Numbered from the stretch's first letter, positions 5,922-60,852 are shown. The stretch: DNA of 64,000 nucleotides from Candidatus Aminicenantes bacterium (GCA_963807525.1 CAWECI010000025.1:26062-90061), one strand, 5' to 3'. The notes: generated by a model from the sequence alone, not told the origin. A program made the numbers and translations.

Positions 5922-5924
5922 ATA

Positions 5925-8856: not shown

Positions 8857-8924
8857 GGCGCTGGCGGGGCGTCCAGGATTGCTCGGCGGGTGCGAATCGG
8901 CTAGATTGGTATGATGAGGTTCGA

Positions 8925-40441: not shown

Positions 40442-40454
40442 GGAGGAGGGTGCC

Positions 40455-40790: not shown

Positions 40791-40838
40791 GATAGCGCTT
40801 TGCTTTTGGCCCAAAAACGTGGATAATAGCCCATCGTT

Positions 40839-42074: not shown

Positions 42075-42087
42075 CCTGCATATCCTA

Positions 42088-42116
42088 TTGACTGAGACCC
42101 GTCCGGATCTTACAAT
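42088..42116 (+). promoter_or_regulatory. sigma70-like promoter TTGACT-N17-TACAAT upstream of ORF 42154
   Basis: hexamers read directly. Confidence 0.45.
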
Positions 42117-42153
42117 CCATCTCAGCTCCAAGGAATGATAGGGGAGGGCAGAC

Positions 42154-42513
42154 ATGAATCCTCTAACCATTAGGGATTTCGATCTTTCCGGCGACGCCCG
42201 GCCGATCGTCGACGCCTGGGCGGCGGAGAACGGCTTCCGGCTTATCGATGGGACCGGCCCCGCCCGGCTGTTCCAGAAAGGCCATGGCTTCTGGACGGCG
42301 CCGGTCAGGCTGGCTATCTCTCAGGAGGGATCGAAGGTCCATCTGGAGGCTTGGATACCCATCAACCTTTTTGTGAGGGCGATGGCTCTTTTTATGCTTC
42401 CCAGGCAAATGGCCCTGGAATCGGGCGGTTTTCGCGGGAGCTTGCCACGCAAGATCGGCCGCCAGGCCGTGAACAAGCTCTTGGAGAAGCTTTCCCAGTC
42501 GCCGATCGCTTAA
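42154..42513 (+). CDS. hypothetical protein
   Basis: 119 aa ORF with GGGGAGGG RBS; no recognisable domain. Confidence 0.35.
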   Translation: MNPLTIRDFDLSGDARPIVDAWAAENGFRLIDGTGPARLFQKGHGFWTAPVRLAISQEGSKVHLEAWIPINLFVRAMALFMLPRQMALESGGFRGSLPRKIGRQAVNKLLEKLSQSPIA

Positions 42514-42572
42514 CGGCTCACGGGCCTTCCGGCCCGATCAGGCATGACGAGGACGAGCCGGAAAAAGAGGGT

Positions 42573-44558
42573 TCAAGCTGAATCACGTTGATTCCTTTTA
42601 TCGACGAAGAAATGCACTTTGCATGATGCAACTTGATCAAAGGAAGTCCTCGAAAAGCGATCACCGAGGATCTGCGTAGAGGCGATACCCGCCATTGCCA
42701 TGGCCTCAACCTCGCTGACCCTTTCCCTGGACTTTGCCTTCTCCATCAGGGAGAAGACCTTTCCGGGGTCGAAAACGGCCTGGCGCTTGATTTCCGATTC
42801 AGACAAGACATGACGGCCATATTCGGTGCCGGCGAAGTGCAGCAAGCTTCTGTGAACCGGGGCTCGATAAGGGTGCTTCGTCCGCGTTCGCACGGACTCG
42901 GGAATGATCCCCTTCAAGGCCTTCTTCAATATGAACTTTTCGTTCAAGCCAAGGATCTTCCAGGTGGACGGGATGCGGCCCGCAAACTCGATCAGCCGCT
43001 TATCGAGGAAAGGCATCCGGATCTCAATGGAGTGGGCCATGGCCACTCGGTCCCCCTGCGACGAAAGCAGGTAATTGCTCAAGAATATGCGGGCCTCCAG
43101 ATACTGAGCTTTAGAGAGTGCATCAAGATCGCTGAAATCCGGCGGCAAAAGATCGAGGGCTTGACCGATGGCATCATAGCCGTCCAAACGAGCCGCGAAG
43201 TCAGGAGAATAGAACTGCTTGACGCGGGACGTGTTCCTCCAGCGGACCTTGTGAGAAAAGAAAGGATCGGCGGACTTGTCGATGTCCTGGGCGAAAAAAT
43301 AGGGAAGGGCTCGCCGGGATTCTGGGTCGCGGAAGATGTCCGGATAAAGCCGCGTGAATAATCGCGGCCGGCAATGAGACCGGGGCTGCCGGGCGCAAAA
43401 AGCCCGGATCCGGGTTTCCTTAAAAATATCGTAGCCGCCAAAAAACTCATCCGATCCTTCTCCCGTCTGGACGACCTTGATTCCGTTATCGGCCACGAGT
43501 TTGGAAAGAAGGAACAGGGGAACAGGGGCCGTCCTCAGCAAGGGCTTTTCACAATGCCAGATGACGTCTTCAAAGGCGTCCCCGATGGTCCGGTGATCCG
43601 CGACGATGTCGTGGTGTTCACAGCCGAGATAACGGGCCATTTCGCTTTGATGGTCGCCTTCGTCATAGCCTTCCTCTTCGAAACGGACGCCGAATGTTTT
43701 TAGATGAGGATTGATCTCGCGCGCGATGACGGCGCTGACGGCCGATGAATCGAGGCCGCCGCTCAAATAGGCCCCGACAGGGACATCGGCTCTTTGGCGG
43801 ATCCTAATGGAGTCTATAAAAAGGTCCCTGATGTTCCGGGCCATGTCTTCCGGCGAATCCCGGGAGTGTTCTGAAGGCGGGAAAAAGGGCAAGTCCCAAT
43901 ATCGGCGGGCGCGCCTTTTCCCCTTTTCAATGAGCATCGTAGTTCCTGGTTCGAGCTCCTCGATGCCCTGGAAAGGGGTCCGCCCCGGCAAGGTCGACCA
44001 GAACGTGAAGACTTGGTCCATAGCTGGCGGATCGATGCGGGGGGATATTGAAGAACCCGCGAAAATGGCTTTCATTTCGGACGCGAAATAGAAGCGATCA
44101 TTTTCCGAAGCATGATAAAGCGGGCGTATCCCGACGCGATCCCGGGAGAGCATGAGAAGCTCTTTTTTTGAATCCCAGAGCGCAATGGCCCATTGGCCGT
44201 TCAGTTCGGAGGCCATCTCCTCGCCGCGTTCCTCATAAAGGTGAATGATCACCTCGGTATCGGACTTCGTCGAAAAACGATGTCCGCGGCTCTCCAATTC
44301 CTCCCGGAGTTCGAGATAATTGAATATTTCTCCGTTGAAGACGATCCAGATCGTCCCGTCCTCATTGCTTATCGGTTGGCGGCCGCTGGCCAGGTCGATG
44401 ATGCTCAGCCGCACCTGTCCTAGGCCGATCTTATCATCGAGGTAGATCCCGTTTTCGTCCGGGCCCCGATAGTGCATGCTGGACAGCATGCGGATCAAAG
44501 GCTGAGGCTCCGGATTGGCCGATGGTCCCGACGATAAGATGCCCGCGATCCCACACAA
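42573..44558 (-). CDS. asnB: asparagine synthetase (glutamine-hydrolysing)
   Basis: 661 aa; N-terminal MCGIAG Ntn nucleophile; PP-loop SGGLDSS; lower GC than flanks. Confidence 0.85.
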   Translation of the reverse strand: MCGIAGILSSGPSANPEPQPLIRMLSSMHYRGPDENGIYLDDKIGLGQVRLSIIDLASGRQPISNEDGTIWIVFNGEIFNYLELREELESRGHRFSTKSDTEVIIHLYEERGEEMASELNGQWAIALWDSKKELLMLSRDRVGIRPLYHASENDRFYFASEMKAIFAGSSISPRIDPPAMDQVFTFWSTLPGRTPFQGIEELEPGTTMLIEKGKRRARRYWDLPFFPPSEHSRDSPEDMARNIRDLFIDSIRIRQRADVPVGAYLSGGLDSSAVSAVIAREINPHLKTFGVRFEEEGYDEGDHQSEMARYLGCEHHDIVADHRTIGDAFEDVIWHCEKPLLRTAPVPLFLLSKLVADNGIKVVQTGEGSDEFFGGYDIFKETRIRAFCARQPRSHCRPRLFTRLYPDIFRDPESRRALPYFFAQDIDKSADPFFSHKVRWRNTSRVKQFYSPDFAARLDGYDAIGQALDLLPPDFSDLDALSKAQYLEARIFLSNYLLSSQGDRVAMAHSIEIRMPFLDKRLIEFAGRIPSTWKILGLNEKFILKKALKGIIPESVRTRTKHPYRAPVHRSLLHFAGTEYGRHVLSESEIKRQAVFDPGKVFSLMEKAKSRERVSEVEAMAMAGIASTQILGDRFSRTSFDQVASCKVHFFVDKRNQRDSA

Positions 44559-44633
44559 GGGCCCTTCTCCTCTTCTCCGTAGAACGTTAGACCATTGTTC
44601 GATTCGGGATCATCCGCCCATGCGCCGCTCCGG

Positions 44634-45456
44634 TCAGAAGCCGAACGTCAGAGTCGTCCCGAATACCAGGACGCTCGCGAGATGGCCATTGATGTTATAC
44701 GAATGTCCTTCAATCGTCCTCCTGGCTGCCGCCGAAAGAGGGAAGCAGAATTGGGTTCCGGCCTGTAGGCCGAGGTTCTTGGCCAAGGGGATCGTCAGCC
44801 CGGCCTTGATCACGCCATCGTGGAACGCCCGGTACTTTTCTCCCGCGTAGCCTCCGGCGCTAGGCAGGTAGGTCCTCCAATAATCGGCCGACCCCGAAAA
44901 ATAAGCGGCCGACGCGCCGAGGTCGAGGGTTATCCCCCTTTTCAAGGCCACGGAATGGGCCAGGGACAAAAGGAAATAGGTTCCCGGATACGCGTCGATG
45001 TCCCGGTAGATCGTCAGGGTCGGCTTTCCCGGGACGGCCAGGCTGGCACCCACGTAAAGCTCCTGCGTTTCGGCCGTGTATTTCGTTCCGTAATAAATGA
45101 AGCCGGCCGTTAGGCCGAACCTTCCTAAACTGTGCGTATAAGAGAGCGTCAGGTCGGTTTCATTAAAGCTCTTCCGGCCGGGCCTGTCCGGAACGAAACA
45201 GGGCGTGGCCTTTTCCCTCATGTCGATGTTGCCCCAGAATGCGGCCGAGAATCCCCGGTAGGACACCGATAGAGCGGGCTCGAAAACGATGCTGTCCCGG
45301 CCGAGCCGGTATCCCCGGAAGATGTAGCGGTTGAAGGTTCCGAGAGACAAGCTCCCCGTTACCGCCTCCGGACCCGTCTCGCCTGACAGGGCAACGTTCA
45401 GAGCGAGCGACGCGAGGAGCGCCAGGCCGGCCGAGCCCAGCCGCTTAGGTGCCTTC
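44634..45456 (-). CDS. outer-membrane beta-barrel protein (porin-like), unknown substrate
   Basis: start MKAPKRLGSAGLALLASLALNVA (signal peptide); alternating amphipathic strands; C-terminal ...TLTFGF. Confidence 0.5.
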
Positions 45457-45489
45457 ATGGTGGCCCCGTCTATAGACTCCTGGTCAAGA

Positions 45490-46785
45490 TCAATCGGGCA
45501 TATACGCTTCTTCCCCGTGGAGGACCGTATCCAGGCCCATGTTCTCCTCTTCGGCCGTGATCCTGACCTTGGTGATCTTATTGATGAGGAACAGCGCGAC
45601 ATAGGTAAAAATGAACGCATAGGCGCTGAAGCCGAGCACGGCCACGGCCTGTTTGAGGAAAAAGGAGGTCCCGCCCAAGAGCAGGCCATTGGCCCCTCCC
45701 GGGTTGACCTTCATGGTGGCGAAAACCCCGAGGAGCAGGATGCCGAGCGTGCCTCCGACCCCGTGGACGCCCCAGACATCCAGGGCGTCGTCCCAACCCA
45801 TCTTGTTCTTCCAGGATATCGCCGCGTAGCAGATGATCCCGGCGGAGATGCCGATCAGGGCCGAGACGGGGACGGTGACGTAGCCGGCGGCCGGAGTGAT
45901 GGTCGCGAGGCCGGCGATGGAACCCGTCAGCAATCCCAAAAACTTGGGCTTTTTCTCGAAGACCCAGGCCATGAGCAGCCAGGTGACGGCGGCGAACGAG
46001 GCGGCGGTGTCCGTGTTGAGGAACGCCAGCGACGTAATATGGTCGACGCGGAGCTCGCTCCCGGCGTTGAATCCGTACCACCCGAACCACAGCAGCCCGG
46101 TGCCGAGCGCGACCAGGGGAATGCTGTGAGGGCCTTTCTCGCTGACCTTGCGCCGGCCGACGAAGAAGACGGCGGCCAAAGCCGCCATGCCGGCTATGGC
46201 ATGGACGACGATCCCTCCCGCGAAGTCCAGGACGCCCCATTTCTGGAGAAGCCCTCCGCCCCAGATCATATGGACGGCCGGAAAATAGACGAAAAGCAGC
46301 CAGACCGTCAGGAACACCATGTAGGCCGTGAAGCGGACCCGGTTGGCGAAGGCGCCCGTGATCAGGGCCGGGGTGATGATCGCGAACATCATCTGATAGG
46401 CGATGAATACGAGGAGCGGGATGTTGTTGGCGGGAGATAGAACCATCTCAGGCGTCACCCCGTGCAGGAAGGCCATCTTGAAATTCCCGATGATGCCGCC
46501 GACGTCGCCGGAAAAACACATCGAGTAGCCGACCGTGAACCAGATGACCGAGGTCCAGCCCATGGACAAGAAGCTCTGGATCATGATCGCCAGTACGTTT
46601 TTCCGGCCGACAAGGCCTCCATAAAAGAACGCCAGGCCCGGAGTCATGAGCATGACCAGGCTGGTCGCCAGAAGCATGAATCCCGTGTTGCCCGTGTCGA
46701 ACATCTCAAACACCTCCTCATAAGATGCGCCGGGGGCGCTCAGGAAGGCATTTGAAATATAGGGCCGGACCGGTAGGGGAGGCAA
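45490..46785 (-). CDS. amt: ammonium transporter
   Basis: 431 aa; Amt signature FDTGNTGFMLLATSLVMLMTPGLAFFYGGL...; alternative start at 46704. Confidence 0.85.
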   Translation of the reverse strand: MPPLPVRPYISNAFLSAPGASYEEVFEMFDTGNTGFMLLATSLVMLMTPGLAFFYGGLVGRKNVLAIMIQSFLSMGWTSVIWFTVGYSMCFSGDVGGIIGNFKMAFLHGVTPEMVLSPANNIPLLVFIAYQMMFAIITPALITGAFANRVRFTAYMVFLTVWLLFVYFPAVHMIWGGGLLQKWGVLDFAGGIVVHAIAGMAALAAVFFVGRRKVSEKGPHSIPLVALGTGLLWFGWYGFNAGSELRVDHITSLAFLNTDTAASFAAVTWLLMAWVFEKKPKFLGLLTGSIAGLATITPAAGYVTVPVSALIGISAGIICYAAISWKNKMGWDDALDVWGVHGVGGTLGILLLGVFATMKVNPGGANGLLLGGTSFFLKQAVAVLGFSAYAFIFTYVALFLINKITKVRITAEEENMGLDTVLHGEEAYMPD

Positions 46786-46856
46786 TCGGGGAAAACGGAG
46801 GTTGTCGCTTCGAAAACCCTGACACCCCGGCCGGGAGATACGGCCGGGCCCGAGCC

Positions 46857-47504
46857 CTAAAGGGAGGTGATGCCTTCCCGGATGGCGTACTTGGTGAGCT
46901 CGGCGACGCTGTGGATATCCAGCTTCTCCATGATCTGGACCCGGTAGGTTTCCACGGTCTTGACGCTGACCCCAAGGCGGGCCGCTATTTGTTTGGTGGA
47001 CAGACCTTCGGACAGCGATTGAAGGACTTCCCGCTCCCGGGGGGTCAGCACGGAAAAGACCCCGGAGTCCGTCTTCTCGAGGTGACGGATATAGTCCTTT
47101 ATCACCAGGTCGGCTATGGCCGTGCTCAGGTAGCTCGCTCCTTTCATGACGGTGCGGATGGCGGCGGTGAGCTCATCGAAGGCCGATTCTTTCAATAAGT
47201 AGCCCACCGCTCCGTTCTTGAGCGCCTCGGCGATGTAGCGGCCGTCCTTGTGCATGGAAAGGGCGATGACCTTCACCCGGGGATTCGCCTCCAGAATTCG
47301 ACGGGTGGCATCGATGCCGTTCAGCCCGGGCAAGGAGATGTCCATGATGACGAGGTCAGGAGAGAGCTCCGCGGCCAAGCGGACCGCAGACAGCCCATCA
47401 GAGGCCTGTCCGATCACTTTAAAGGCGTCGTTTTTTTCGAGAAGGCTGCGCAGGCCGTCCACGATGATCTTATGGTCGTCGGCGAGGAGAATGCGGACGA
47501 TCAT
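46857..47504 (-). CDS. NarL/FixJ-type response regulator (REC + LuxR HTH)
   Basis: 215 aa; ILLADDH...D; C-terminal LuxR-type HTH (LTPREREVLQSLSEGLSTKQIAARLGVSVKTVETYR). Confidence 0.85.
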   Translation of the reverse strand: MIVRILLADDHKIIVDGLRSLLEKNDAFKVIGQASDGLSAVRLAAELSPDLVIMDISLPGLNGIDATRRILEANPRVKVIALSMHKDGRYIAEALKNGAVGYLLKESAFDELTAAIRTVMKGASYLSTAIADLVIKDYIRHLEKTDSGVFSVLTPREREVLQSLSEGLSTKQIAARLGVSVKTVETYRVQIMEKLDIHSVAELTKYAIREGITSL

Positions 47505-48802
47505 GGTGCTTCCCCAGTCCCGACGCCTCCGGCAAGAGGCACATCCAGAGTGAACGCGGCCCCCCGGCCCGGTGAGGAAGAAACGCCGAGGGCGCCGCCC
47601 AGGATCCTCAGACGCTCCCTGATGCTGAATAAGCCAAACCCTCCGTGATCGTCCATCGACGCCGCTTCGCGCGAGGCGTCAAAACCCTCACCGTCGTCCC
47701 GGACCTCGACCCTGAGCGCCGCCGGCAGCTGGGCCAGGTGGACCCGCACGGACGAGGCCCTGGCATGCTTGGCGGCGTTCAAGAGAAGCTCTTGGACCGA
47801 GCGGAATATGGTGATCTGGATGTCGTCGGGGATGGACGGCCCCGATCCCTCGGATGTCATCTCGGCCCGGAGCCCGTGCTTTTTTTGAAACTGCCGGCAA
47901 AGCCACTGCAGGGCCGGTCCCAGGCCCAGATCATAGAGCACGGGTGGGCTGATCTCGAAGGTCAGGGTCCGGGCGCTCTGGATGGTCTGGTCCAAGAGTG
48001 CCAGCGTATCTTCGATGTCTTTTTCCATGCCGCTGAACATGGCCGTGCTCTGCATCTGCCGGAGGCGAGCCCGGATCACGGCCAATGCCTGGCCGATATG
48101 ATCATGAAGGTCGGAGGCGATGGCCCGGCGTTCCCGCTCTTCCGCCAGGGTCAATTCCGACGCTAGGCGCCTGAGCTGGGCTTGGGAATGCCTGATGGCC
48201 TCCTCCGCCCTCATACGCTCGGAGATCTCGTCCCGAAGGGTCTGGTTTATCCGCTCGAGATCAGCGGTCCGGTCCTGGACCTGACATTCCAGATCTTTGT
48301 AGGCGTTCCTGGCCTTTTCCTCGGCCGCCTGGCGCTCGAAATAAGATGCCAGCATCTGGGCCAGCGATTGAATGAGCGCCCGTTCCTCTTTCAAGAAAGG
48401 CCCTTCGAAAATCACCGGTCTGTCCTCAAGGTAAACGACCTCGATCAGGCCCTCGACCCCTTCACCGGCAGAGAAGGCGGCGGTCTGCGACCAGGGGGTC
48501 CGGCGGAAGTTGGGCGTCGCCGTTTCGGCGTCGCCGAGGCTTATCTTGGCGGCGGTAATCTCCGGATATTGCCAAGCCGGAGGCAAGAGGGCGACGATCT
48601 CCTCTAAGATCATGGCCGGCGGTCTTCCCGCGCGCTCGAGGACGCGGGCCGCTCCGTGGAGCGCGCTCAACTCCTTGACGCGCTCTTTTAGCGCCCAGAC
48701 GACCTCATTTTTTTCCGCGGCGTTTTTGTCAAATGGGCTCGGGGGGTCTATCGGGAAGGACATAACCGGACTCATTGTATGCCAGGGTGTCGGAAATATC
48801 AA
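47501..48802 (-). CDS. cytoplasmic sensor histidine kinase (HisKA_3/NarX-type) with N-terminal GAF-like domain
   Basis: H-box ASDLHDHIGQALAVI, HATPase motifs; overlaps response regulator start by 4 nt. Confidence 0.75.
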   Translation of the reverse strand: MIFPTPWHTMSPVMSFPIDPPSPFDKNAAEKNEVVWALKERVKELSALHGAARVLERAGRPPAMILEEIVALLPPAWQYPEITAAKISLGDAETATPNFRRTPWSQTAAFSAGEGVEGLIEVVYLEDRPVIFEGPFLKEERALIQSLAQMLASYFERQAAEEKARNAYKDLECQVQDRTADLERINQTLRDEISERMRAEEAIRHSQAQLRRLASELTLAEERERRAIASDLHDHIGQALAVIRARLRQMQSTAMFSGMEKDIEDTLALLDQTIQSARTLTFEISPPVLYDLGLGPALQWLCRQFQKKHGLRAEMTSEGSGPSIPDDIQITIFRSVQELLLNAAKHARASSVRVHLAQLPAALRVEVRDDGEGFDASREAASMDDHGGFGLFSIRERLRILGGALGVSSSPGRGAAFTLDVPLAGGVGTGEAP

Positions 48803-48944
48803 TGAATTGAACCGGTCCGCTCCAGTGGTCCCGGGGGTCCCTGCCTCTCTTGGGCAAAGGCTGTGCTCAGTTGCCAGACAATCAAACAGACAAACTGCTC
48901 CGCCGCGTCATCGACAACTCACAGAGTATTCCGAATCCCCCATA

Positions 48945-50777
48945 TTATTTATTTGTGTTCTTGAGCTTCACTGTGCGCTTCTCCCAATGATGGAACTTCG
49001 TCCAACGATCAAGCGCGGCCTTTGAGTTCTTTGTCGACTCTCCCTCTAAGAGGGCATTAATCCTTGACCAGGTAAGGTCTTGGGCATAGGACAGGTGCAT
49101 GATCCAGCGGAGCTCGCTCAGCGTGGGCGTCTCGAATGAGGGATCGATGGCTTGCCATTCCTTGAGGGCCTGCGCCTCCATGCGGTTGTCCCAAAAGAGG
49201 CCGCCCATCGCATATCTGGCCCGGCTCCCGGTCTTGCCGCCTTGCTCGATCAGAAGCCGGTAGATCCGTTCCTGCTCATCAACATAATCCTGGAGAACAG
49301 CATCAATTCTTTCAAGGCCGCGATGTCCGAGGGCCGAAGCGAGATCACGGTGGATCCCGCCGAGTACAAAGGCTTTTGCCCGTCTGTCGAAGACCTCGGC
49401 TCGGCCCCCGAAGTGACCTGCGAGCACGTCCTCTATCTCATAGACCGAATCGGTAAGATAGGCCAGGGCCCGGCGTTCGAAGTCGTAGAGCGAGGCTAGG
49501 AAAAATAGGATCTCGATCCCTGTGCGGCTGGTAAAGTTCTTAAGCCCATAGGAGATGAGGTCGCTCTGCGTCGTCTTGACATAAAAGAGCTCCTCAAGGA
49601 AGTCGAACGCCGTTGAAACCCGATTTCCCAAGTTGAAGGCTCCGGCGAGGTTCTCGTAAAGGAAACGCCGAGTGAGTTGGGCCAGAATGGGGTCGTTGAG
49701 GTCCCGGCCGACCAGGTATCTCTCCATGAACACCCGGACTTGTTCTCCGTCGTCGAGCTCCATCAGGTCGTCCAGGATCTTCGGGATATTCTTCTCGGAG
49801 AGCCCGGGCAGCTCGGGGAGCTTTTCCGCGGCGGTCGGTCCCTCACGCTTCGACGATGACGGCATATAGACGATCTTGATGGCGTCCGGCGGACCGGGAA
49901 TATCGGCCGAATTCGGGCGGCTGCCCGAAGCGTCCGCCTCCCTGGAAGATGCTGACTTAGCCGGGATCTCAAGCTTTGGGAAGCCCGACACGGTAAAGAA
50001 GACGCTCGCGCCGAGGGCGATCATGCCCTCATAAGGGCAACTCCTGTAATAGTATTCCTCGGGGACCCGGGTGAAGCCCGTGTCAGTGGGGATCTCGACC
50101 TCGTCGACGTGGCTCCTCTTGCTCGGCTCTTCATTTTCCGACCTTAGGGACGCGAGCCTTTTTAGAGTGGCAGAACCGGTTCGATAAAGGACGGGCCGCT
50201 CGTCGGGAGACGTCTTAAGAGGATAGAGAGTGTCTCCGCTCTCCGTTTTAATGGGACCCTGAAGATCTGTCCCCAGCGATAGCCCCCAGGGGGGATTATC
50301 CAACGCCGACAGCCCGGAGCGTCTTTCCTTGAGTTGCCCGAGAGAAGCCCGCATAAGAGAGCGGAAGATTTCCGTCTGTTCCCGTTGGCCGAGGCGAGGG
50401 TCGAGCTGGGGAGAGTGCTCGAAGATGTAATCGTAAAGGTCGTCATTGAGCGTGGCTAAAGCTTCTTTCAATACCTTTGCCTCCTGTGGATCAAGCTGCA
50501 TGCTTGCCACGGCCTGCTTGACAGCTTCCTTGCTCCGGCTGACTTGATTAGGCTTCAGAGGCCGTTGAGTGGCATATTGGGAAATCACCAATAGGCCAAG
50601 AATCGTGAGATGGAGGGTGAGTGACAGGATGACAGAGCTCGCGAATCGTGCTCTTAGATTTCGGAAATAGCTTAGACAACGGGAAGTGCATCTATACGGC
50701 CATGAACGCCGCGATACGAAACCGAACAGGTCATCAACCGGTTGACCCATCCTCCGGTCTCCATCTAACAAGATCAT
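48945..50777 (-). CDS. membrane-anchored hypothetical protein (610 aa), low GC
   Basis: single TM (SVILSLTLHLTILGLLVISQY) then large soluble domain without recognisable motifs; at edge of low-GC islet. Confidence 0.45.
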   Translation of the reverse strand: MILLDGDRRMGQPVDDLFGFVSRRSWPYRCTSRCLSYFRNLRARFASSVILSLTLHLTILGLLVISQYATQRPLKPNQVSRSKEAVKQAVASMQLDPQEAKVLKEALATLNDDLYDYIFEHSPQLDPRLGQREQTEIFRSLMRASLGQLKERRSGLSALDNPPWGLSLGTDLQGPIKTESGDTLYPLKTSPDERPVLYRTGSATLKRLASLRSENEEPSKRSHVDEVEIPTDTGFTRVPEEYYYRSCPYEGMIALGASVFFTVSGFPKLEIPAKSASSREADASGSRPNSADIPGPPDAIKIVYMPSSSKREGPTAAEKLPELPGLSEKNIPKILDDLMELDDGEQVRVFMERYLVGRDLNDPILAQLTRRFLYENLAGAFNLGNRVSTAFDFLEELFYVKTTQSDLISYGLKNFTSRTGIEILFFLASLYDFERRALAYLTDSVYEIEDVLAGHFGGRAEVFDRRAKAFVLGGIHRDLASALGHRGLERIDAVLQDYVDEQERIYRLLIEQGGKTGSRARYAMGGLFWDNRMEAQALKEWQAIDPSFETPTLSELRWIMHLSYAQDLTWSRINALLEGESTKNSKAALDRWTKFHHWEKRTVKLKNTNK

Positions 50778-50865
50778 TATAACCCCTCGGGACCGGTACG
50801 CAAAACCTTATCTTAAGGCCGAGATAGCGGAGTTGACATAATTTCACGAGGGATGACTTCGGGGC

Positions 50866-51022
50866 CGCTAATTAGAAAACTTGCCCCTGGTTACGGTTCC
50901 GGACTGATAAGAAAGAGAGAGTTGGCCTTTATGGCATATCGCCGAATTCTCAGGGCAAAAGGGAGAAGGGGAGATGGCTGGGGAGCGAGGATTCGAACCT
51001 TGATTGCATGATCCAGATCATG
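50866..51022 (-). repeat. repeat copy A: degenerate 3' half of tRNA-Gln plus ~110 bp of its 3' flank (direct repeat of 55027-55219)
   Basis: ...GGGAGAAGGGGAGATGGCTGGGGAGCGAGGATTCGAACCTTGATTGCATGATCCAG matches copy C ...GGGAGAAGGGGAGTTGGCTGGGAAGCAAGGATTCGAACCTTGATTGCATGATCCAG; 5' half of tRNA absent. Confidence 0.75.
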
Positions 51023-51052
51023 AACGACTCCAGTTCCGTTGCTCGCGATGGG

Positions 51053-51784
51053 CTACCGGCCTAGAAGCCAAGCCTCTGAGCCTCTGAAAAAGAACATGAT
51101 GAGCAAAACGAGCACAAATAGTACCGGCAGCGTTATGGAATAATACGTCCCCATCTGAAGCTTAAGGGGCCTGGCGTCCATCTTCTTAAAGGTCAACCAG
51201 AAGGCCATACCGAAAGGAACGAGAAGAACTGCGGCGGAAACCAACTGTGGAACAAGCGAGCCTAAGTGACTGGCGAAGTTCCCTCCGAGCCTTGAAAGGA
51301 GGTAACCGAAGGTGTGCCCTCCTTGGAAAAAGATAAGGTACATAAGTACGACGCCGAAGACGTTGATAGCGATGGAGAAGACCCCGATGCTCAAGAAGAT
51401 CGAGCTGAAAAATAGGACAAGAATCGTGATGCCCGCATCGGCAAGAAGGGTTCGGCCGACGATAATCGTCGCCGCTAAGCCCAATACCATGAGAAGTCCG
51501 AAACGAGGCAGGATCTTTGCCAGGATGACCTTCCTTCGAGTCACCGGCAGTGAGAACAGATACTCGAACGCCCGATCTTTTCTCTCCGTTTGAAAGATCG
51601 TCGCCCCGGCATAAATGGAATATATGACGAGCGTAAGAATGAACCCTGTATTAATAAGGCTGGCGTAGTCGAGCCCCACTTTAAAGACCAGCCTATCTCC
51701 TATATACATAAAAGGGATAACGGCAAGGACCACCAAGCTCTCAACAAACCTCTTCAGAGCATCCCGGACTTCTTTTCTAATCAT
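51053..51784 (-). CDS. ABC-2-type transporter permease / polytopic membrane protein
   Basis: 243 aa, ~6 TM helices, overlaps upstream ABC ATPase gene by 8 nt; ~45% GC. Confidence 0.5.
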   Translation of the reverse strand: MIRKEVRDALKRFVESLVVLAVIPFMYIGDRLVFKVGLDYASLINTGFILTLVIYSIYAGATIFQTERKDRAFEYLFSLPVTRRKVILAKILPRFGLLMVLGLAATIIVGRTLLADAGITILVLFFSSIFLSIGVFSIAINVFGVVLMYLIFFQGGHTFGYLLSRLGGNFASHLGSLVPQLVSAAVLLVPFGMAFWLTFKKMDARPLKLQMGTYYSITLPVLFVLVLLIMFFFRGSEAWLLGR

Positions 51785-52601
51785 ATTCGCCTCCTATGAA
51801 AGCCGAGACGATTTCCGTGAGATTTAGATCAATTATGTCACCCTCGATCGTCCCTCGGAGACCGTTGTCAAAAGGGTAGACGAAGAACTCAGAATGCTCC
51901 GAGTAGTCAATTTGGGAGAGCACGTTCAGAGAATCTGGCCGGTTTCTGGCAACAATCCTCTTCACCTTGGACTTGAGGTCTTCAATATTCTCATCGACAG
52001 CGATTTCGCCTGATTTCAGGAGAATGACTCGTTCGATCAGGTGCTCAATATCGTGGAAATTCACATTGACCATGACCACCGTCACGCGGCGTTTGGAGAG
52101 GATCTGGACGATCTGCTCAAGGAAGACTCTTCGGAGGTATGCGTCAATCGAGTGGATGATCTCGTCGATCAACAGCACCGCTGGCTCTAGGGAGAGGATG
52201 AGGTTCAGATGAAAGATGGTCCTCTGGCCAATCGAAAGTTCGCGAACCTTTTGACCATAGCCGATCTTCGTATGCCGGACGAGTGAATCATCAAATGAGG
52301 AGAGACCATAAACCGACTTATGAAATCCGATGGCCTCGGCGATAGTCAAGCTCTCATAAAGGCTCAAAGCATCAGAGACGAAGCCGATCTTCCGCCGGGG
52401 ATCGGCACCCAGTTTAGTATCGTAACTGATTTTCCCATTATCTGGCCTCAGGACGCCGGCCATGAGGCGCAAGAGCGTGCTCTTGCCGACACCGTTGATG
52501 CCTGTGATAAGACAGACTTGGCCTTCGGGGATGCTGAGGCTAAGATCCCTGAAAACCCCAGTTTTTCCATAACTAAAGGACGCTCCCCTAATATCGATCA
52601 T
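51777..52601 (-). CDS. ABC transporter ATP-binding protein
   Basis: Walker A GINGVGKST, signature LSIGQRT, Walker B LLIDE. Confidence 0.8.
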   Translation of the reverse strand: MIDIRGASFSYGKTGVFRDLSLSIPEGQVCLITGINGVGKSTLLRLMAGVLRPDNGKISYDTKLGADPRRKIGFVSDALSLYESLTIAEAIGFHKSVYGLSSFDDSLVRHTKIGYGQKVRELSIGQRTIFHLNLILSLEPAVLLIDEIIHSIDAYLRRVFLEQIVQILSKRRVTVVMVNVNFHDIEHLIERVILLKSGEIAVDENIEDLKSKVKRIVARNRPDSLNVLSQIDYSEHSEFFVYPFDNGLRGTIEGDIIDLNLTEIVSAFIGGEYD

Positions 52602-53023
52602 TTCCGTGTTCCTTTCTCCTGGCGGACGGGGGTGCCGATATTTGTCATCGCGGCGACCTCCCGGAGTATTTGTTCCGCTGAGTAACCGAGCTCCAAGGCC
52701 TTCGAAATATATTCCTCCGTAACCGCCCTGAAAAGTTCAGGGCTGCCCTTGCGAAATCTAGCTGGGTCGAGTTTGACGTAATATCCGGCACCAGGCCGCG
52801 AATAAATGTAGCCTTCATTTTCGAGCTGCCAATAAACTTTGATGATTGTGTTAGGATTGACCATGAGCTTAAGGGCCATTTCCCTAAGCGTCATGAGTTG
52901 CTTTCCGTTTTCCCACCGCCCCGATAGGATGGCTAGCTTGATGGCCCGCTTGATCTGCTCATACGCCGGGACAGCAGACTTGGCGTCTATCTTGATTTGG
53001 CGAAATTCCTCCAGTCTTTCCAT
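52598..53023 (-). CDS. GntR family transcriptional regulator, YtrA-like short subfamily
   Basis: 141 aa; GntR HTH (MTLREMALKLMVNPNTIIKVYWQLENEGYIYSRPGAGYYV); directly upstream of ABC ATPase/permease as in ytrA operons. Confidence 0.8.
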   Translation of the reverse strand: MERLEEFRQIKIDAKSAVPAYEQIKRAIKLAILSGRWENGKQLMTLREMALKLMVNPNTIIKVYWQLENEGYIYSRPGAGYYVKLDPARFRKGSPELFRAVTEEYISKALELGYSAEQILREVAAMTNIGTPVRQEKGTRK

Positions 53024-53041
53024 TGCTATACTGATATAGCA
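53024..53041. promoter_or_regulatory. palindrome TGCTATA-ctga-TATAGCA immediately upstream of the GntR start; candidate autoregulatory operator
   Basis: 7-bp perfect inverted repeat read directly. Confidence 0.45.
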
Positions 53042-53144
53042 TAGTAGAGCACATTGTCAAGAGCTATTTTCGCTCACAGACTTGGCGATAGGTAAGAGCC
53101 TATCCTCTTTTTCCGGACCTCTCCCTATTTGTCTACAATTTGTC

Positions 53145-53265
53145 TGTGGCGTGCCCAAATAGGCTGAAAGCGCCGCTAAATTACGGTTTCGGACCGAAAA
53201 CGATGAGAGTCGGGTCTTATCGCAAGCCGTTGAAACCTCGGGAGCCAAGAGGGGAGGGTGGATAA
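53145..53265 (-). repeat. repeat copy B of the tRNA-Gln 3'-flank element (no recognisable tRNA part)
   Basis: GGCGTGCCCAAATAGGCTGAAAGCGCCGCTAAATTACGGTTTCGGACCGAAAACGA...TCGGGTCTTATCGCAAGCCGTTGAAACCTCGGGAGC ~85% identical to 55027-55135. Confidence 0.7.
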
Positions 53266-53471
53266 GTATCAAGGGATTGGACCCGACCATTAGCGCATTC
53301 ATTAACGGTATTCGGTATAAGTCAATCGAATCCGAGATTCAGGCACTTCAGCAACATGTCCGGGTCGCTGGGCCCAAATAGGGAGTCATTCCCTCAGACC
53401 ATCCCGCGCTTTACTCCGGTGGGTCCTTTTGGATAAAATCATTGTGCGCTTGTGAGGGCAAAGTGAAGGGA

Positions 53472-54134
53472 ATGGACGGTCGGCTAGTCTTGACGATTTT
53501 GGCCAGCTTTAGTGTGTTCTTGATAGCTGCAGGAATCGCTTCGACTAATCCTGCCGGCCCGTCCGATTCCGTCTTGCAAGCACTAATAGCCCTCTCGGTT
53601 TCGGCGCTGCTATTCATAGTCATCCGGCTTATCCTGTTTGTATGCCATCGAAAGCGGCATAGGCATGACCCTCCTCTCCTGACTGAATCTGGTGGCGGTC
53701 GCGCAGGCTTTTTTCATAGGAGATCGGCCATCCTCTTCATCGTCTTCCTGGTGGGGAGGTTTGCATTGGGTGCTCTGGTAAATAGTCGATTGAGTATCTC
53801 GACCCTTCTTATTATTTCATTCCATGTTCTGCTGACTGTCTCTTTAGGGTTTTTATATTCCCGCTGGGCTTATTCTGAAGAATACGTCCCGATCCTGGTT
53901 GCGCTGATTGTGACGGTTGCCGATTCCGCATTATATGCGTTTAATTACGCTAGTGATCCGTCCCATCAATTCAGATATGGGCCCGAAATTTTCTGGTTCG
54001 CGGCTTCCGGTGTGTCTGGGAGGCTAATGCTTGTCCCAATAATCTCGGTGATCATATGGGGGAGCTGGAAGTTGTCAGCGCCAAGGCAGACTATAGATAT
54101 AGCTGACCCACCAGCACTTATCGGGCTGAGCTAA
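53472..54134 (+). CDS. hypothetical polytopic membrane protein
   Basis: ~220 aa, 5-6 TM helices, low GC. Confidence 0.4.
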   Translation: MDGRLVLTILASFSVFLIAAGIASTNPAGPSDSVLQALIALSVSALLFIVIRLILFVCHRKRHRHDPPLLTESGGGRAGFFHRRSAILFIVFLVGRFALGALVNSRLSISTLLIISFHVLLTVSLGFLYSRWAYSEEYVPILVALIVTVADSALYAFNYASDPSHQFRYGPEIFWFAASGVSGRLMLVPIISVIIWGSWKLSAPRQTIDIADPPALIGLS

Positions 54135-54180
54135 AAAAGGGTGGGTTGGGGTGGGTGAGGGGAATTGAACCCCCAACCTT

Positions 54181-54214
54181 CGGGTCCGGAGTCCGACCCC
54201 CATTTTTTTTTCTA
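54181..54214 (+). terminator. rho-independent terminator (GGGTCCGGAGTCCGACCC hairpin + T9)
   Basis: read directly after membrane-protein gene; preceded by G-rich tract with tRNA T-arm-like GGGGAATTGAACCCC on the opposite strand. Confidence 0.55.
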
Positions 54215-54326
54215 GACCTTCCCTCTTTGCCCGCCATTTGTCTGTGGCGTGCCAAAGAGGAGCGGTACCTGCTTTGACTTTCATTGCCAGTTGAGGTCTT
54301 ATTTAGTTATCAAGACCAGGGAGGGA

Positions 54327-54890
54327 ATGATGAAAAAGTATCTCCGGGTTGTTCCGTTGGTCCTTCTTCTTTGTTTCGTCATCAACTGCCAAGACAAGGC
54401 GGCTATGGCAGAATTGGAAAAGTACAGGGCTCAAGCCGCCGTTGAGGGGCAAAACAAGGCCCTGGCGCTTCGCTGTGCGGATGCGTTTCAAAGGGGAGAT
54501 GTCGCTGCCCTAAAGGGTATCTTTTCTCCCGATTATGTTGGGTATTTACATGATAACATCGTACCCGATAACACCACCCGTACCCAAACCTATGAAATGG
54601 CGCTTGAATCCTGTAAGAATCTCTCGGCATCGTATTCTGATGTTGCCATAATCGTTGAAGAAACGATTGCAAAGGGAGACAAGGTAACAATTAGGTATAC
54701 TGCTAAAGGAACATATACAGGGGCTGACTTGGGTTTACGGGATGTGCGAAAGAAGATAGAGATAAGCGGTATTGCCATAGAACGGATTGAAAATGGGAAA
54801 ATTGTCGAAGTCTGGGACGCGGCAGATAGCTTGAGTTTCTTTAGACAACTTGGCGCTGAACTTACGCTAAATTTAGAAAAGAAGAAGTGA
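54327..54890 (+). CDS. SnoaL-like (NTF2 fold, ester-cyclase-like) lipoprotein
   Basis: start MMKKYLRVVPLVLLLCFVINC (lipobox) preceded by GGGAGGGA; SnoaL-like pattern ALALRCADAFQRGDVAALKGIFSPDYVGY...KVTIRYTAKGTYTG...VWD. Confidence 0.55.
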   Translation: MMKKYLRVVPLVLLLCFVINCQDKAAMAELEKYRAQAAVEGQNKALALRCADAFQRGDVAALKGIFSPDYVGYLHDNIVPDNTTRTQTYEMALESCKNLSASYSDVAIIVEETIAKGDKVTIRYTAKGTYTGADLGLRDVRKKIEISGIAIERIENGKIVEVWDAADSLSFFRQLGAELTLNLEKKK

Positions 54891-55026
54891 GCCATACCAC
54901 AGCATCCAACTCGCTGATCTTCTTGAGTCAACAGAGGGGAAAATAAAAGCGCGCCCGGGTGATTCGAACGTAGCCAGAGGGTCCCCTAGTTCCTAGCACT
55001 CTCCCTCAAACTCGCCGTGTGACCAT

Positions 55027-55145
55027 GGCGTGCCCAAACGGACTGGAAGCGCCGCTAAGTTACGGTTTCGGACTGAAAACGAAAGAGAGAGTCGGGTCTT
55101 ATCGCAAATCGTTGAATTCTCGGGAGCAAAAGGGAGAAGGGGAGT
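55027..55145 (-). repeat. repeat copy C: 3' flank of intact tRNA-Gln (reference copy of repeats A and B)
   Basis: see copies A/B. Confidence 0.7.
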
Positions 55146-55219
55146 TGGCTGGGAAGCAAGGATTCGAACCTTGATTGCATGATCCAGAGTCATGAGTCCT
55201 GCCGTTGGACGACTTCCCA
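55146..55219 (-). tRNA. tRNA-Gln (anticodon CUG), CCA encoded
   Basis: hand-folded: acceptor TGGGAAG/CTTCCCA, D-arm GTCC-AACGGCA-GGAC, anticodon arm CATGA-CTCTGGA-TCATG, T-arm CAAGG-TTCGAAT-CCTTG, discriminator G, CCA; resembles E. coli tRNA-Gln acceptor UGGG...CCCAGCCA. Confidence 0.8.
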
Positions 55220-55340
55220 GCAGGGAGGACTATCTTAAAGAAATCGGCGGGGAAATTCAAGTCGAAAATCGTCAGGGAAAGTCGATATCGAAAATAGGGG
55301 ACACGATCCCATTCCCCCCAGTTGAGGGGCCCCAGCCTTC

Positions 55341-56387
55341 ATGGTAAGATGCCCTCCCGTGAAGTCCAACGTCCTAAAGATCGTCCTCGGTCTCGTCCTG
55401 ACCCTGGCCCTGCTCTATTTCTTCGGGCGCAGCGTCGACTGGAAGGATGTCCCGGCCCAGATCACGCACGTCAGCATCCCCCTCTTCCTTCTGGCGGTCC
55501 TGCTCTCGGCCTCCCATTTCGTCTTTCGGGCGGCGCGCTGGCACGTCCTCGTGGCCCGGGAGAAGATCGACGTCCGCTTCCGGAACCTCGTCGCGGCCAA
55601 CGTCATCGGCTTCACCGTCACTTTCATCTTTCCTGGCCGCCTCGGCGAGCTGGTCAAGCCCTTATACCTGGCCCGGAAGGAGGGCCTGAGACCGGGCTTC
55701 ACGATCGGCACGGTCGTGGTCGAGCGCCTGTTCGACATGGCCACCATGTGCCTGCTCTTGGGCCTGTTCCTGATCTCGCGGCCCCTTTTCGCGGCGTCCT
55801 GGCCGATCGGCGAGGAGGCCGGCCGGCGTCTGACGTTCCTCGGGACGGTCGGCATCGCCATCGCCGCGGGCGCGCTCGTGGTCGTCCTTCTACTCTATTT
55901 TTACAGGGAGCGGGCCCTGAGGGTCATCGCCTTCCTCCTCCGTCCGTTGTCTGAGAAGGCCCGGCTGGCCGCCCTGAAACTCGTCGTCGAGTTCATCGAC
56001 GGGCTGCGCTTCTTCCGGACGCGGAGCCAGCTGGCCCTTTATTCCGTGATGTCGCTGGTCGTCTGGCTCGGCATCACGCTCTTCTATTGGGTTTTTTTCG
56101 CCGCCTATTACGTCCACCTGCCGTACTTCCTGGTCATTCCCTACGTGTTCCTGACCGCGGTCGGCGCCTCCATCCCGACGCCGGGCATGGTCGGCGGCTT
56201 CGACTACTTCAGCAAGCTCGGCATGGTCCTGGTCCTGGGGCTCGCGGCCGGCCCGGCCGCGGGCATCACCCTGGCCTTCCACGCCGTCCAGCTCGCCGTG
56301 ACTTGCGCCCTGGGATATGCTATATTGGCGCGGGAGGGGCTGACCGTCCTCCAGCTCAGGAAGTTGGGAGAGAGCGAAATCCGATGA
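55341..56387 (+). CDS. UPF0104 / lysylphosphatidylglycerol-synthase-TM-region-like (flippase-like) membrane protein
   Basis: 348 aa, ~8 TM helices, family call by recall of pattern (…GRLGELVKPLYLARKEGL…). Confidence 0.5.
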   Translation: MVRCPPVKSNVLKIVLGLVLTLALLYFFGRSVDWKDVPAQITHVSIPLFLLAVLLSASHFVFRAARWHVLVAREKIDVRFRNLVAANVIGFTVTFIFPGRLGELVKPLYLARKEGLRPGFTIGTVVVERLFDMATMCLLLGLFLISRPLFAASWPIGEEAGRRLTFLGTVGIAIAAGALVVVLLLYFYRERALRVIAFLLRPLSEKARLAALKLVVEFIDGLRFFRTRSQLALYSVMSLVVWLGITLFYWVFFAAYYVHLPYFLVIPYVFLTAVGASIPTPGMVGGFDYFSKLGMVLVLGLAAGPAAGITLAFHAVQLAVTCALGYAILAREGLTVLQLRKLGESEIR

Positions 56388-56839
56388 GGTGCTCCTACTG
56401 CGGTTTCCTCGAAAGCAAGGTCATCGATTCCCGGGAGAGCAAGAAGGGGATCTCGATCCGGCGGCGCCGCGAATGCCTGTCCTGCCACCGCCGGTTCACC
56501 ACCTACGAGAAGATCGAGGAGATCCCCTACATGGTCGTCAAGAAGGACGGCTCCCGCCAGCCCTTCGACACCCAGAAGCTCCTCCGGGGGATGATGAAGG
56601 CCTGCGAGAAGCGGCCGATCCAGATCAGCCAGCTCGAGGAGATCGCCGAAGAGATCGAGTCCCTGCTCCAGGAGCGGCCGGACAAGGAGATCGGCGTGGC
56701 CGAGATCGGCCAGCTGGTCATGGACCGGCTCAAGGAGCTGGATAAGGTCGCCTACGTGAGGTTCGCCTCGGTCTACCGCGAGTTCGGCGACGTCGCCGAG
56801 TTCCGCCGGGAGCTCGAGGACCTCATGAAGGAAAAATAG
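56384..56839 (+). CDS. nrdR: transcriptional repressor NrdR
   Basis: MRCSYCGFLESKVIDSRE...CLSCHRRFTTYE zinc ribbon + ATP-cone; ATGA overlap with upstream gene. Confidence 0.9.
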   Translation: MRCSYCGFLESKVIDSRESKKGISIRRRRECLSCHRRFTTYEKIEEIPYMVVKKDGSRQPFDTQKLLRGMMKACEKRPIQISQLEEIAEEIESLLQERPDKEIGVAEIGQLVMDRLKELDKVAYVRFASVYREFGDVAEFRRELEDLMKEK

Positions 56840-56854
56840 CCCCCGCCGTCCGCC

Positions 56855-57304
56855 ATGGTCCGTCGCATCAAGCCCGTTGCCCGACCCGCCAAGGCCGTCC
56901 CGCGCGTCCACACGACGGCCCTGGCCAGGCGGATGAGCGAGCCGCGCCTGCCCGCCCCCGGCGAGGTGACCATCCCGGCCATCGACATTTACGAGACGCC
57001 GACCGAATACATCGTCGAGATGGAACTGCCCGGCGTGGACGGCGAGGACATCAAGGTCCTGCTCTTCGCGAGCCGGCTCGAGGTCACCGGCTTCAAGCGC
57101 GAGCTGGACACGCCCCACGGCTCGCGCTACACGCGCCTCGAGCGGGAGTACGGCGCCTTTCGGCGGGATGTCGTGGTGCCCGGCGCGTTCGATCCCGGCC
57201 AGGCCTTCGCCGGGCTCGAGAAGGGCGTCCTGACCATCATTCTGCAGAAGCCGCCCCGGAAGCGGCGGGACGTCGAGATCAAGGTCCGGCGCGGCGCCGG
57301 CTAA
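56855..57304 (+). CDS. Hsp20/alpha-crystallin family small heat-shock protein
   Basis: 149 aa; alpha-crystallin domain IDIYETPTEYIVEMELPGV...GVLTIIL. Confidence 0.75.
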   Translation: MVRRIKPVARPAKAVPRVHTTALARRMSEPRLPAPGEVTIPAIDIYETPTEYIVEMELPGVDGEDIKVLLFASRLEVTGFKRELDTPHGSRYTRLEREYGAFRRDVVVPGAFDPGQAFAGLEKGVLTIILQKPPRKRRDVEIKVRRGAG

Positions 57305-57323
57305 GCCCGATTGGAGAACTCTC

Positions 57324-59762
<2,439 letters not shown>

Positions 59763-59767
59763 AAGAA

Positions 59768-59829
59768 GGTACCGGGTTTACGCATTACGCAAGATCCGGA
59801 GAAGACGCGTAATGCGTAAGCCCGGTACC
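59768..59829 (+). terminator. long imperfect hairpin (23-bp arms GGTACCGGGTTTACGCATTACGC / GCGTAATGCGTAAGCCCGGTACC, 16-nt loop) after lon
   Basis: read directly, 1 mismatch; no U-tract. Confidence 0.45.
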
Positions 59830-59854
59830 TTCCGGGGATTCCGGGGGAAGACGA

Positions 59855-60829: not shown

Positions 60830-60852
60830 TCGGGGGGGCGCCGCGCGGGCGC

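Follow-up and report, generated by a model that had tools for sequence, protein, structure and literature searches.

The tRNA-Gln locus and its repeats

Here we describe a low-GC islet that ends at a tRNA-Gln(CTG) gene in a Candidatus Aminicenantes genome (GCA_963807525.1, CAWECI010000025.1:26062-90061). The window, meaning the whole stretch of DNA analyzed, is 64,000 nucleotides (nt) long, and positions are counted from its first letter. The tRNA gene is intact and lies on the minus strand, with ARAGORN and Rfam agreeing with the initial annotation on this point (Table 1). Copies of a flanking sequence, referred to here as the arm, occur beside the gene and further into the islet. Together with adjoining tRNA-derived sequence they give three to four attachment (att)-like copies in 4.3 kb, all in direct orientation: A, B, C, and a truncated copy. 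The region is probably the tRNA-proximal part of an integration hotspot in this genome.

Copy A consists of a displaced tRNA-Gln fragment and an arm that lacks the distal conserved blocks. The fragment (50975-51023) is 48 nt long, corresponds to tRNA positions ~26-74, from the anticodon stem onward, and is 95% identical to the gene. Aligned jointly with copy C, fragment and arm match it in 86% of 145 columns; a further search gave 87.6% over query positions 25-161, and identity to 55126-55188 is 95%. Measured in ungapped blocks, the copy B arm (53122-53258) has 83-89% identity to copy C; it is followed at 53259-53284 by a heavily decayed remnant of the tRNA-Gln T-arm and acceptor, and in the same search this copy matched at 78% over query positions 50-194. 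The truncated copy is 84% identical to 53122-53158. These values bear out the direct repeats of the flank first reported at 53145-53265 and 50866-51022, as well as the tRNA 3' part assigned to the latter. A short sub-repeat, TTTGTCTGTGGCGTGCC, had been placed at three positions; two stand (53139 and 54237; 0.01 chance matches expected), and the third, at 55011-55038, is a weaker homologous part of copy C. Neither the arm and tRNA repeats nor the sub-repeat has a further copy in the window (chance expectation ~0). The tRNA-Gln gene and copy A are the only sites with good att cores, and they bound 51024-55145, with no recombinase gene between them. Rfam returned nothing meaningful besides the tRNA between 48.5 and 56 kb, and therefore no known RNA family accounts for the arm.

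The GC content of the islet is 49.9% over 50866-55145 and 55.9% over the segment of its outermost gene, which encodes a 610-amino-acid (aa) protein. The low GC reported initially is thus confirmed, against a background of ~65% rather than ~70% (65.5 ± 2.6% in 1-kb windows, minimum 58.6%). The reported cargo was also recovered. Pfam identified a GntR-family regulator, an ATP-binding cassette (ABC) ATPase, an ABC-2 permease, and a SnoaL-like protein; a 230-aa protein has no match in Pfam or NCBIfam, and the 610-aa protein has none in Pfam, NCBIfam, or PADLOC. Islet genes lie on both strands. Each arm would belong to the module distal to it, which gives the proposed modules M1 (arm C and the SnoaL gene), M2 (the truncated arm, a tRNA-Arg-like piece, and the 230-aa membrane protein), M3 (arm B and the GntR/ABC exporter operon), and M4 (fragment A, its degenerate arm, and the 610-aa gene). 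No integrase, resolvase, or transposase domain was found by Pfam between 35 and 57 kb, in keeping with the initial annotation.

Table 1 Features of the tRNA-Gln islet and its surroundings (window coordinates).
Feature	Position	Strand	Basis and remarks
Intact tRNA-Gln(CTG)	55146-55219	-	ARAGORN and Rfam tRNA (59.8 bits, E 2.4e-11); proposed integration target
att-like copy A	50866-51023	-	Displaced tRNA-Gln 3' fragment and degenerate, truncated arm
att-like copy B	53122-53284	-	Type-1 arm, conserved blocks intact; would head module M3
att-like copy C	54990-55145	-	Complete type-1 arm (P'-arm-like) adjoining the intact tRNA; part of the SnoaL module
Truncated att-like copy	54206-54260	-	Distal ~50 nt of a type-1 arm only; proposed far border of module M1
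tRNA-Arg(CCG)-like 3' half	54150-54201	-	Anticodon arm with loop CTCCGGA, T-arm, acceptor strand; read from the sequence
Short tRNA-like T-arm/acceptor remnant	54950-54989	-	Far end of arm C; identified by eye and motif only
SnoaL-like protein gene (M1 cargo)	54249-54890	+	Pfam SnoaL, 6.7e-20
230-aa hydrophobic protein (M2 cargo)	53442-54134	+	No family
GntR-family regulator, small (M3)	52598-53023	-	Pfam; sub-threshold NCBIfam match
ABC ATPase (M3)	51777-52601	-	Pfam; sub-threshold NCBIfam match
ABC-2 permease (M3)	51053-51784	-	Pfam; end overlaps the ATPase gene
Putative promoter/operator	53024-53060	-	TTGACA at 53055-53060; palindrome TGCTATA-N4-TATAGCA at 53024-53041; read from the sequence
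610-aa protein gene, outermost variable gene	48945-50777	-	N-terminal hydrophobic segment
Segment absent from L001	48914-55117		6,204 bp, including the 610-aa gene
Intermediate-GC block (59.3%)	42075-48913		AsnB, 351-aa open reading frame (ORF), Amt, LuxR-type regulator/kinase pair

The arm and its link to tRNA-Gln

A 22-nt pattern taken from the arm alone was used to scan a metagenome collection and returned 22 loci (loci and contigs used for comparison carry L numbers). Every arm copy that is not cut by a contig end adjoins a tRNA-Gln(CTG) gene or its 3' fragment, and the copies within each locus share one orientation. Most displaced fragments begin at tRNA positions 17-35, retaining the whole anticodon arm. 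Aligning copy C with 28 other arms from 19 loci revealed blocks that are at least 90% conserved, also outside the scan pattern: TTGCGAT, GTCCG.AACCGTAATTTA, CGGCGCTTTCAG, and CACGCCA. Viral contigs scanned with an arm 17-mer, the junction of tRNA end and arm, and the tRNA 3' half gave three chance matches of 17-18 nt and no related element.

The sequence beside the tRNA had been taken for its native 3' flank, and this did not hold up. The arm is element-borne, because many species differ after the first 17-44 nt and because the arm travels with cargo, following the SnoaL gene into other species. Only the first 28 nt of arm C are present in L001, a contig of the same species without the islet. 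The sequence now beside the gene would be the arm of the latest module.

Three other identities for the arm were considered and rejected. Small stems can be drawn by eye in the 29 arms, as for a structured RNA, and sequence variants break the pairs (TTTCG becomes CATCG with CGAAA unchanged). A sigma-54 promoter in TTTGGGCACGCCA lacks the -12 TTGC element. For an attC-like site, RYYYAAC is present with no properly placed GTTRRRY partner; this was judged by motif, and no formal attC model was run.

Strain variation and recurrence of modules

Contigs of the same species, obtained by exact-protein look-ups, are 97-100% identical to the window. Look-ups of the kinase and of the 610-aa ORF gave no exact match, probably because start codons were called differently. 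In the metagenome contig L001, the tRNA-Gln gene and the first part of arm C are joined straight to the region upstream of the kinase gene: L001 196-5920 corresponds to window 55118-60843 at 99.46%, and L001 1-195 to window 48720-48912. L001 looks like an unoccupied site. The initial annotation had proposed that related genomes might show an empty tRNA-Gln site, and the absence is there, although L001 is not a clean excision product, its junction being outside the tRNA core.

In L002 and L005, a 928-nt cassette (X), with one ORF of no known family, replaces 53243-55127. Both retain the 610-aa gene, copy A, the GntR/ABC operon, and copy B, and in both a different, type-2 arm adjoins the tRNA after cassette X. 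Both breakpoints of this replacement, 53242 and 55128, fall within the initial ~25 nt of the arms, and copy B of L002 is B-like distally and C-like proximally. The Logan contig L004 is 100% identical to the window over 2.2 kb of the GntR/ABC module and breaks at both repeats. L005 runs from the LPG_synthase_TM side of the tRNA through copies B and A to the kinase, and L059 covers the stretch from the ABC operon across the 610-aa gene to the kinase/regulator pair. Related genomes thus do not carry identical content at this locus.

The modules also recur in other species. The SnoaL module (54206-55145) is 94.5% identical at the nucleotide level in L011 and 95.7% in L037 (protein identity 94% and 95%), while the backbone proteins LPG_synthase_TM and orf411 of these loci are 58-75% identical to those of the window. 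Arm C moves with the SnoaL gene in both, and in L037 the module is array-internal and is immediately preceded by an integrase gene and a tRNA fragment. L052 carries the 230-aa gene (83% aa and 87% nt identity), there too with a B-type arm after it. L053 and L054 share the whole GntR/ABC module with the window (87-88% nt identity). In L054 its neighbors are unlike those in the window and it has att copies on both sides, each with a tRNA-Gln fragment of ~50-55 nt; the equivalent of copy B keeps 55 nt. In L053 the tRNA-proximal att copy retains just the last ~11 nt of the tRNA.

An arm reduced to its distal part, as at 54206-54260, was seen in 3 of 33 copies, all beside SnoaL (window, L011, and L037). 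In L011 and L037 it is joined to other tRNA-like pieces than in the window. We considered the distal-arm junction as a second-tier insertion site and rejected it, given this confinement to the SnoaL lineage.

A tyrosine integrase family in related arrays

The cognate integrase that the initial annotation had looked to the rest of the genome for was found in the arrays of relatives and not in the window. It is a tyrosine integrase of 465-483 aa, encoded in L052, L039, L043, L037, and L035, with a partial copy at the contig end of L045. An N-terminal excisionase-type helix-turn-helix (HTH; HTH_17) precedes a SAM-like domain and a Phage_integrase domain (E 1e-34 to 1e-40; PF00589 119-137 bits, Pfam cut-off 27.1). 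The family forms two clades that are 46-50% identical to each other. Its closest solved structures are Xer-type recombinases (E 1e-18 to 1e-20), and it scores 62-81 bits against the integron-integrase model TIGR02249, for which the cut-off is 265. The five complete genes are alike in position: each shares the strand of the tRNA and occupies the tRNA-distal end of its element, with the stop codon 15-28 nt before a tRNA-Gln fragment.

The integrase-bearing elements are 4.8-10.7 kb long and occur in arrays alongside small integrase-less modules. Their other cargo includes a PIN protein, a type II methyltransferase, a UvrD-like helicase, a primase-helicase, an ECF (extracytoplasmic function) sigma factor, or ABC-2 permeases; in L037 the primase-helicase (Zn_ribbon_DnaG and AAA_25) adjoins the integrase. 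Among the ~23 inter-att modules in all loci, 3 contain an integrase and ~20 do not, the latter measuring 0.7-2.3 kb. Conjugation or mobilization genes were seen in none of the arrays.

Proposed assembly of the islet by tandem accretion

The reading that we favor, with a probability of roughly 0.8, is tandem accretion of integrase-less modules, similar to cis-mobilizable elements (CIMEs), at a strain-variable tRNA-Gln(CTG) integration hotspot. Elements specific for tRNA-Gln would have entered its gene one by one, each time in the 3' part. With every insertion the tRNA would have been rebuilt and the arm of the new element, ~150-200 nt long, placed beside it, and the earlier insert, headed by the displaced fragment and its own arm, would have been shifted outward each time. 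On this model the 3' part of the present tRNA-Gln was supplied by the last inserted module, and complete relatives carry the HTH-containing tyrosine recombinase at the tRNA-distal end. The whole anticodon arm is retained in the fragments, which places the likely crossover in or near the anticodon loop, and the flanking arm may hold accessory binding sites of the integrase. Modules without an integrase possibly arrived, and may leave, by means of an integrase acting in trans or supplied by a neighboring element. Since only the tRNA and copy A have good cores, 51024-55145 is predicted to be the only unit in the window still able to excise. Serial site-specific insertion at the tRNA-Gln 3' end had been proposed initially; strain variation, the recurrence of modules, the ties of the repeats to the tRNA, and the cognate integrase in relatives all speak for it.

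Several observations count against accretion as a complete account. The analysis covered 64 kb of this genome, and the cognate integrases, used as tblastn queries, had no match anywhere in that window. Copy B and the 54206-54260 copy have no usable cores. The junction in L001 (48913|55118) lies 28 nt beyond the tRNA, outside the core, and no displaced tRNA-Gln fragment was found at the far end of the array (48914) or near 42.1 kb. At least one event that was not site-specific, either a deletion or an illegitimate join, must therefore have occurred. The initial annotation offered two origins, a decayed element or one mobilized in trans. Across the ~20 integrase-less modules of all arrays we found a single integrase remnant of 27 aa, none of it in the window. 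This scarcity of debris means that the short modules are not freshly decayed elements, and simple decay is only a candidate origin. Finally, the arms share 85-95% identity across ~150 nt, and a chimeric structure is apparent in some, so that homologous recombination between them probably contributes to the shuffling.

This last point leads to the strongest alternative, which we regard as possible and still clearly less probable than accretion. Here the flexible island would be kept mainly by homologous recombination through the tRNA/LPG side and the 150-nt arms, the far side perhaps joining illegitimately; no integrase would act today, and the att repeats would be fossils. The similarity of the arms would allow such exchange. 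The B/C hybrid in L002 fits it, as do breakpoints at 53242, 55128, and, in L001, 55118, which fall in the arm and not in the tRNA core. The differing tRNA-like pieces joined to the SnoaL distal arm and the absence of an integrase from the window also fit. What it leaves unexplained is the origin of tRNA fragments that start at the anticodon arm and the fixed position of the integrase beside fragments in five arrays. Moreover, modules cross between species whose backbone is 58-79% identical at the aa level, too divergent for efficient two-sided exchange. Homologous recombination is best seen as a contributor to shuffling and not as an alternative origin.

A second alternative, which we judge unlikely, is a working platform for cassette capture. 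Minimal modules, each a core, an arm of ~150-200 nt, and one to three genes, would be the normal mobile unit; the HTH-fused integrase, encoded elsewhere, would circularize them and re-insert them at tRNA-Gln, making the system an integron analog with tRNA-derived sites. The size of the modules agrees with this, ~20 of 23 inter-att modules being 0.7-2.3 kb long with intact ORFs, and so does the near-absence of integrase debris. In L052, L039, and L043, small modules lie between the tRNA and the integrase element and are hence later arrivals. In L037, however, the order is reversed. Gene orientation is mixed, modules have their own promoters (GntR), the integrase falls far below integron-integrase thresholds, and the sole apparent signature of second-level insertion, the orphan distal arm, is limited to one module lineage. 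Activity of such a platform is predicted from sequence only.

The remaining explanations are far less probable. A misassembly, with low-GC contigs wrongly joined at a repeated tRNA, would suit the many assemblies that break here (L004 at both repeats; L010, L014, and L024 end beside the expected tRNA), but independent assemblies from other samples, L005 and the L004 and L059 contigs, reproduce the joins of the window, which makes an artefact very improbable. Local tandem duplication of tRNA-Gln and its flank, followed by decay without foreign DNA, would yield direct repeats and can be set aside with still more assurance: the inter-repeat segments are mutually unrelated, ~15 points below background GC, absent or different in near-identical strains, and 87-96% identical in other species. 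Dispersed repetitive extragenic palindromic (REP) sequences or miniature inverted-repeat transposable elements (MITEs), beside the tRNA by chance, share with the arm short conserved blocks and small hairpins and are just as improbable, as there are no extra copies in the window, the viral-contig matches are due to chance, and the copies in all 22 metagenome loci are joined in direct orientation to tRNA-Gln or its fragment.

Conserved backbone and extent of the variable region

We scanned species-representative genomes with the neighboring LPG_synthase_TM protein and obtained 24 loci, of which 17 are titled Candidatus Aminicenantes or Aminicenantales and the others carry broader or evidently mislabelled names of metagenome-assembled genomes (MAGs). 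The best match is 79% identical, and the species of the window is therefore absent from the representative collection. A tRNA-Gln(CTG) gene lies directly upstream of LPG_synthase_TM in 20 of the 24 loci, and the other four contigs end beside it; the same arrangement is present in L001, L002, and L005. The row tRNA-Gln, LPG_synthase_TM, NrdR is kept among the loci and continues in the window with HSP20 and Lon. Downstream of the tRNA, the 24 loci have no conserved content.

On the far side, a backbone gene pair, orf187/orf411 (window 40163-42074), recurs in eight other loci. In L011, L013, L019, L030, L040, and L051, the distance from the orf411 homolog to tRNA-Gln, or to the last tRNA fragment, is 0.04-9.4 kb; in L015 only an orf187 homolog was found, 1.8 kb away. 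Because this pair lies close to the tRNA in other loci, the species-level variable region in the window is 42075-55145, larger than the islet delimited by the initial annotation. The block between orf411 and the islet is not at this position in other species. Within the species of the window, its AsnB/Amt/regulator-kinase content is fixed among same-species contigs, and it may represent older inserted DNA.

Additional features of the islet and of related arrays

The ends of the three M3 genes (51053-53023) overlap, and their sub-threshold NCBIfam matches are PmtR, PmtA, and DrrA. The palindrome TGCTATA-N4-TATAGCA touches the GntR start codon, with TTGACA ~30 nt upstream; 53024-53060 is likely an autoregulatory operator with a putative, nearly leaderless promoter. 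The SnoaL gene has a likely ATG start at 54327 after GGAGGG, and the N-terminus of the product is hydrophobic and signal-like.

For the 610-aa protein we found 19 homolog clusters, the named ones all from Aminicenantes. L055 and L056 each have a homolog in an unrelated context, where similarity is confined to the ORF. In L056 the ORF-limited identity is 84% at the nucleotide level, and the ORF has 55-57% GC within DNA of 39-48% GC. The L011 genome carries a homolog near a cell-division gene cluster. Compared with L005, the 610-aa protein of the window is only 91% identical (aa), while its neighbors are 99-100% identical.

Two tRNA 3'-half-like pieces were missed by the initial annotation. The piece at 54150-54201, of which Rfam detects only the T-arm, aligns with the 3' half of an intact tRNA-Arg(CCG) in L042, located 1.1 kb from tRNA-Gln, and with tRNA-like pieces after the arms of L035, L044, L049, and L051. 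The piece at 54950-54989 contains GTTCGAATC and then CCCGGGCGCG, like the longer Arg(ACG)-like piece of L044 and L049. Approximately 10 type-1 arms end in such a second piece with an Arg-type anticodon loop (CCG, ACG, or TCG); Arg-like pieces were seen at both window positions and in L035, L044, L049, L051, L052, L054, and L033. They may be relics of a target used earlier, or represent a second att core.

The type-2 arm family was found next to tRNA-Gln in L002 (320-400 and 1040-1120), L009, L012, L021, L040, L048, and L054. It is characterized by TAGGC motifs every ~11 nt (ATTAGGCGAAATTAGGCGCGAGTAGGC), and in L002 its distal 80 nt form direct repeats that flank the single ORF of the cassette. 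ARAGORN also called near-complete tRNA-Gln copies inside the arrays of L034 (824-893) and L039 (6992-7059), one with anticodon CTA and labelled Pyl, the other a 68-nt tRNA-Gln. These are probably pseudo-tRNAs made of a fragment and element DNA.

In another MAG of the Aminicenantes clade, L012, a defense island adjoins tRNA-Gln (247-9304) and encodes Septu PtuA and PtuB (E 5e-156 and 2.5e-61), a DruE-like helicase of 1751 aa, and a methyltransferase. Outside the variable region, a palindromic repeat of ~70 nt that matches itself in both orientations lies just after lon in the window (59763-59835) and is also present in L001 and L005; a related copy is near 63.4 kb (63348-63413).

Relation to known systems and implications

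In tRNA-gene islands, a tyrosine-integrase element splits and regenerates its target, leaving a displaced fragment at its far end (PMC4383910). When integration recurs at the restored gene, older inserts are driven outward (10.1101/2020.12.28.424599; PMC5704250). The window resembles Islander-type islands (Williams 2002; PMC4383910) in pairing an intact tRNA with a displaced 3' fragment of the same tRNA in direct orientation, in fragments that keep the anticodon arm, as in the anticodon-centred class of sites, and in foreign composition and presence or absence among strains (L001; L002 and L005). Islander requires an integrase in each island, and in its set of 3919 islands only 4 tandems have three or more members (PMC4383910). 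Integrases are present in L035, L037, L039, L043, L045, and L052, but the modules of the window have none and would hence be filtered out. In the repeat of the window, moreover, conserved sequence extends unusually far past the tRNA, as an arm of ~150-200 nt.

The CIMEs of the ICESt1/ICESt3 family of Streptococcus retain attL and attR without genes for integration or transfer; they lie beside integrase-bearing elements in tandem arrays at the target gene's 3' end and are thought to move by accretion or through the services of a neighbor (PMC5704250). Similarly, 51024-55145 is bounded by att cores, no integration or transfer genes were found in it, and the same modules occur in integrase-bearing arrays (L037 and L052) and in other species. 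The window-type modules are far smaller (0.7-2.3 kb), with no mobilization genes seen and no integrase debris in the window, and the host belongs to an uncultured lineage of Acidobacteriota. Tycheposons of Prochlorococcus use tyrosine recombinases at tRNA genes, and partial tRNAs are strewn through their islands (10.1101/2020.12.28.424599). By site and layout they resemble the arrays described here, with successive integrations, partial tRNAs, strain-variable cargo, and, in L037, an integrase with a primase-helicase. They differ in phylum and in the N-terminal excisionase-type HTH of the integrase here, and fragmented integrases remain there as remnants (10.1101/2020.12.28.424599), with almost none here.

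Horizontally acquired islands of Dehalococcoides at ssrA, which their authors describe as arising by a mechanism common across strains (PMC3146451), likewise reflect site-specific integration at a single-copy small-RNA gene; their target is a transfer-messenger RNA and their cargo reductive dehalogenase operons. Integrons and clusters of attC sites lacking integron-integrases (CALINs) likewise consist of short units, most of them with a single gene; every unit has its recombination site, and in many cases no integrase is close by. They differ in that the repeats here are direct and tRNA-derived rather than attC hairpins, gene orientation is mixed, and the recombinase is below the IntI cut-off. 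The closest known systems are CIMEs and the partial-tRNA-strewn islands of Prochlorococcus, and the features that define integrons and REPs are lacking. A limited literature search found no account of a tRNA-targeted integrative element in Aminicenantes. As far as we found, the element family, its long arm, and the HTH-fused integrase are new within a known kind of tRNA-anchored island.

Aminicenantes are an abundant, uncultured lineage of sediments and soils. The locus provides a concrete gene-exchange hotspot for them, with a defined target, att unit, integrase family, and exchangeable cargo. Cargo in the window includes an exporter operon and a SnoaL-like protein; relatives have Septu, a DruE-like helicase, and methyltransferases at this site. 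The locus also breaks metagenome assemblies and can serve as a marker for strain-level variation. The general understanding of such islands is unchanged; the one point of potentially greater weight is the abundance of compact integrase-less modules free of integrase debris. If these do form a cassette platform, single genes would spread by this route between Aminicenantes species.

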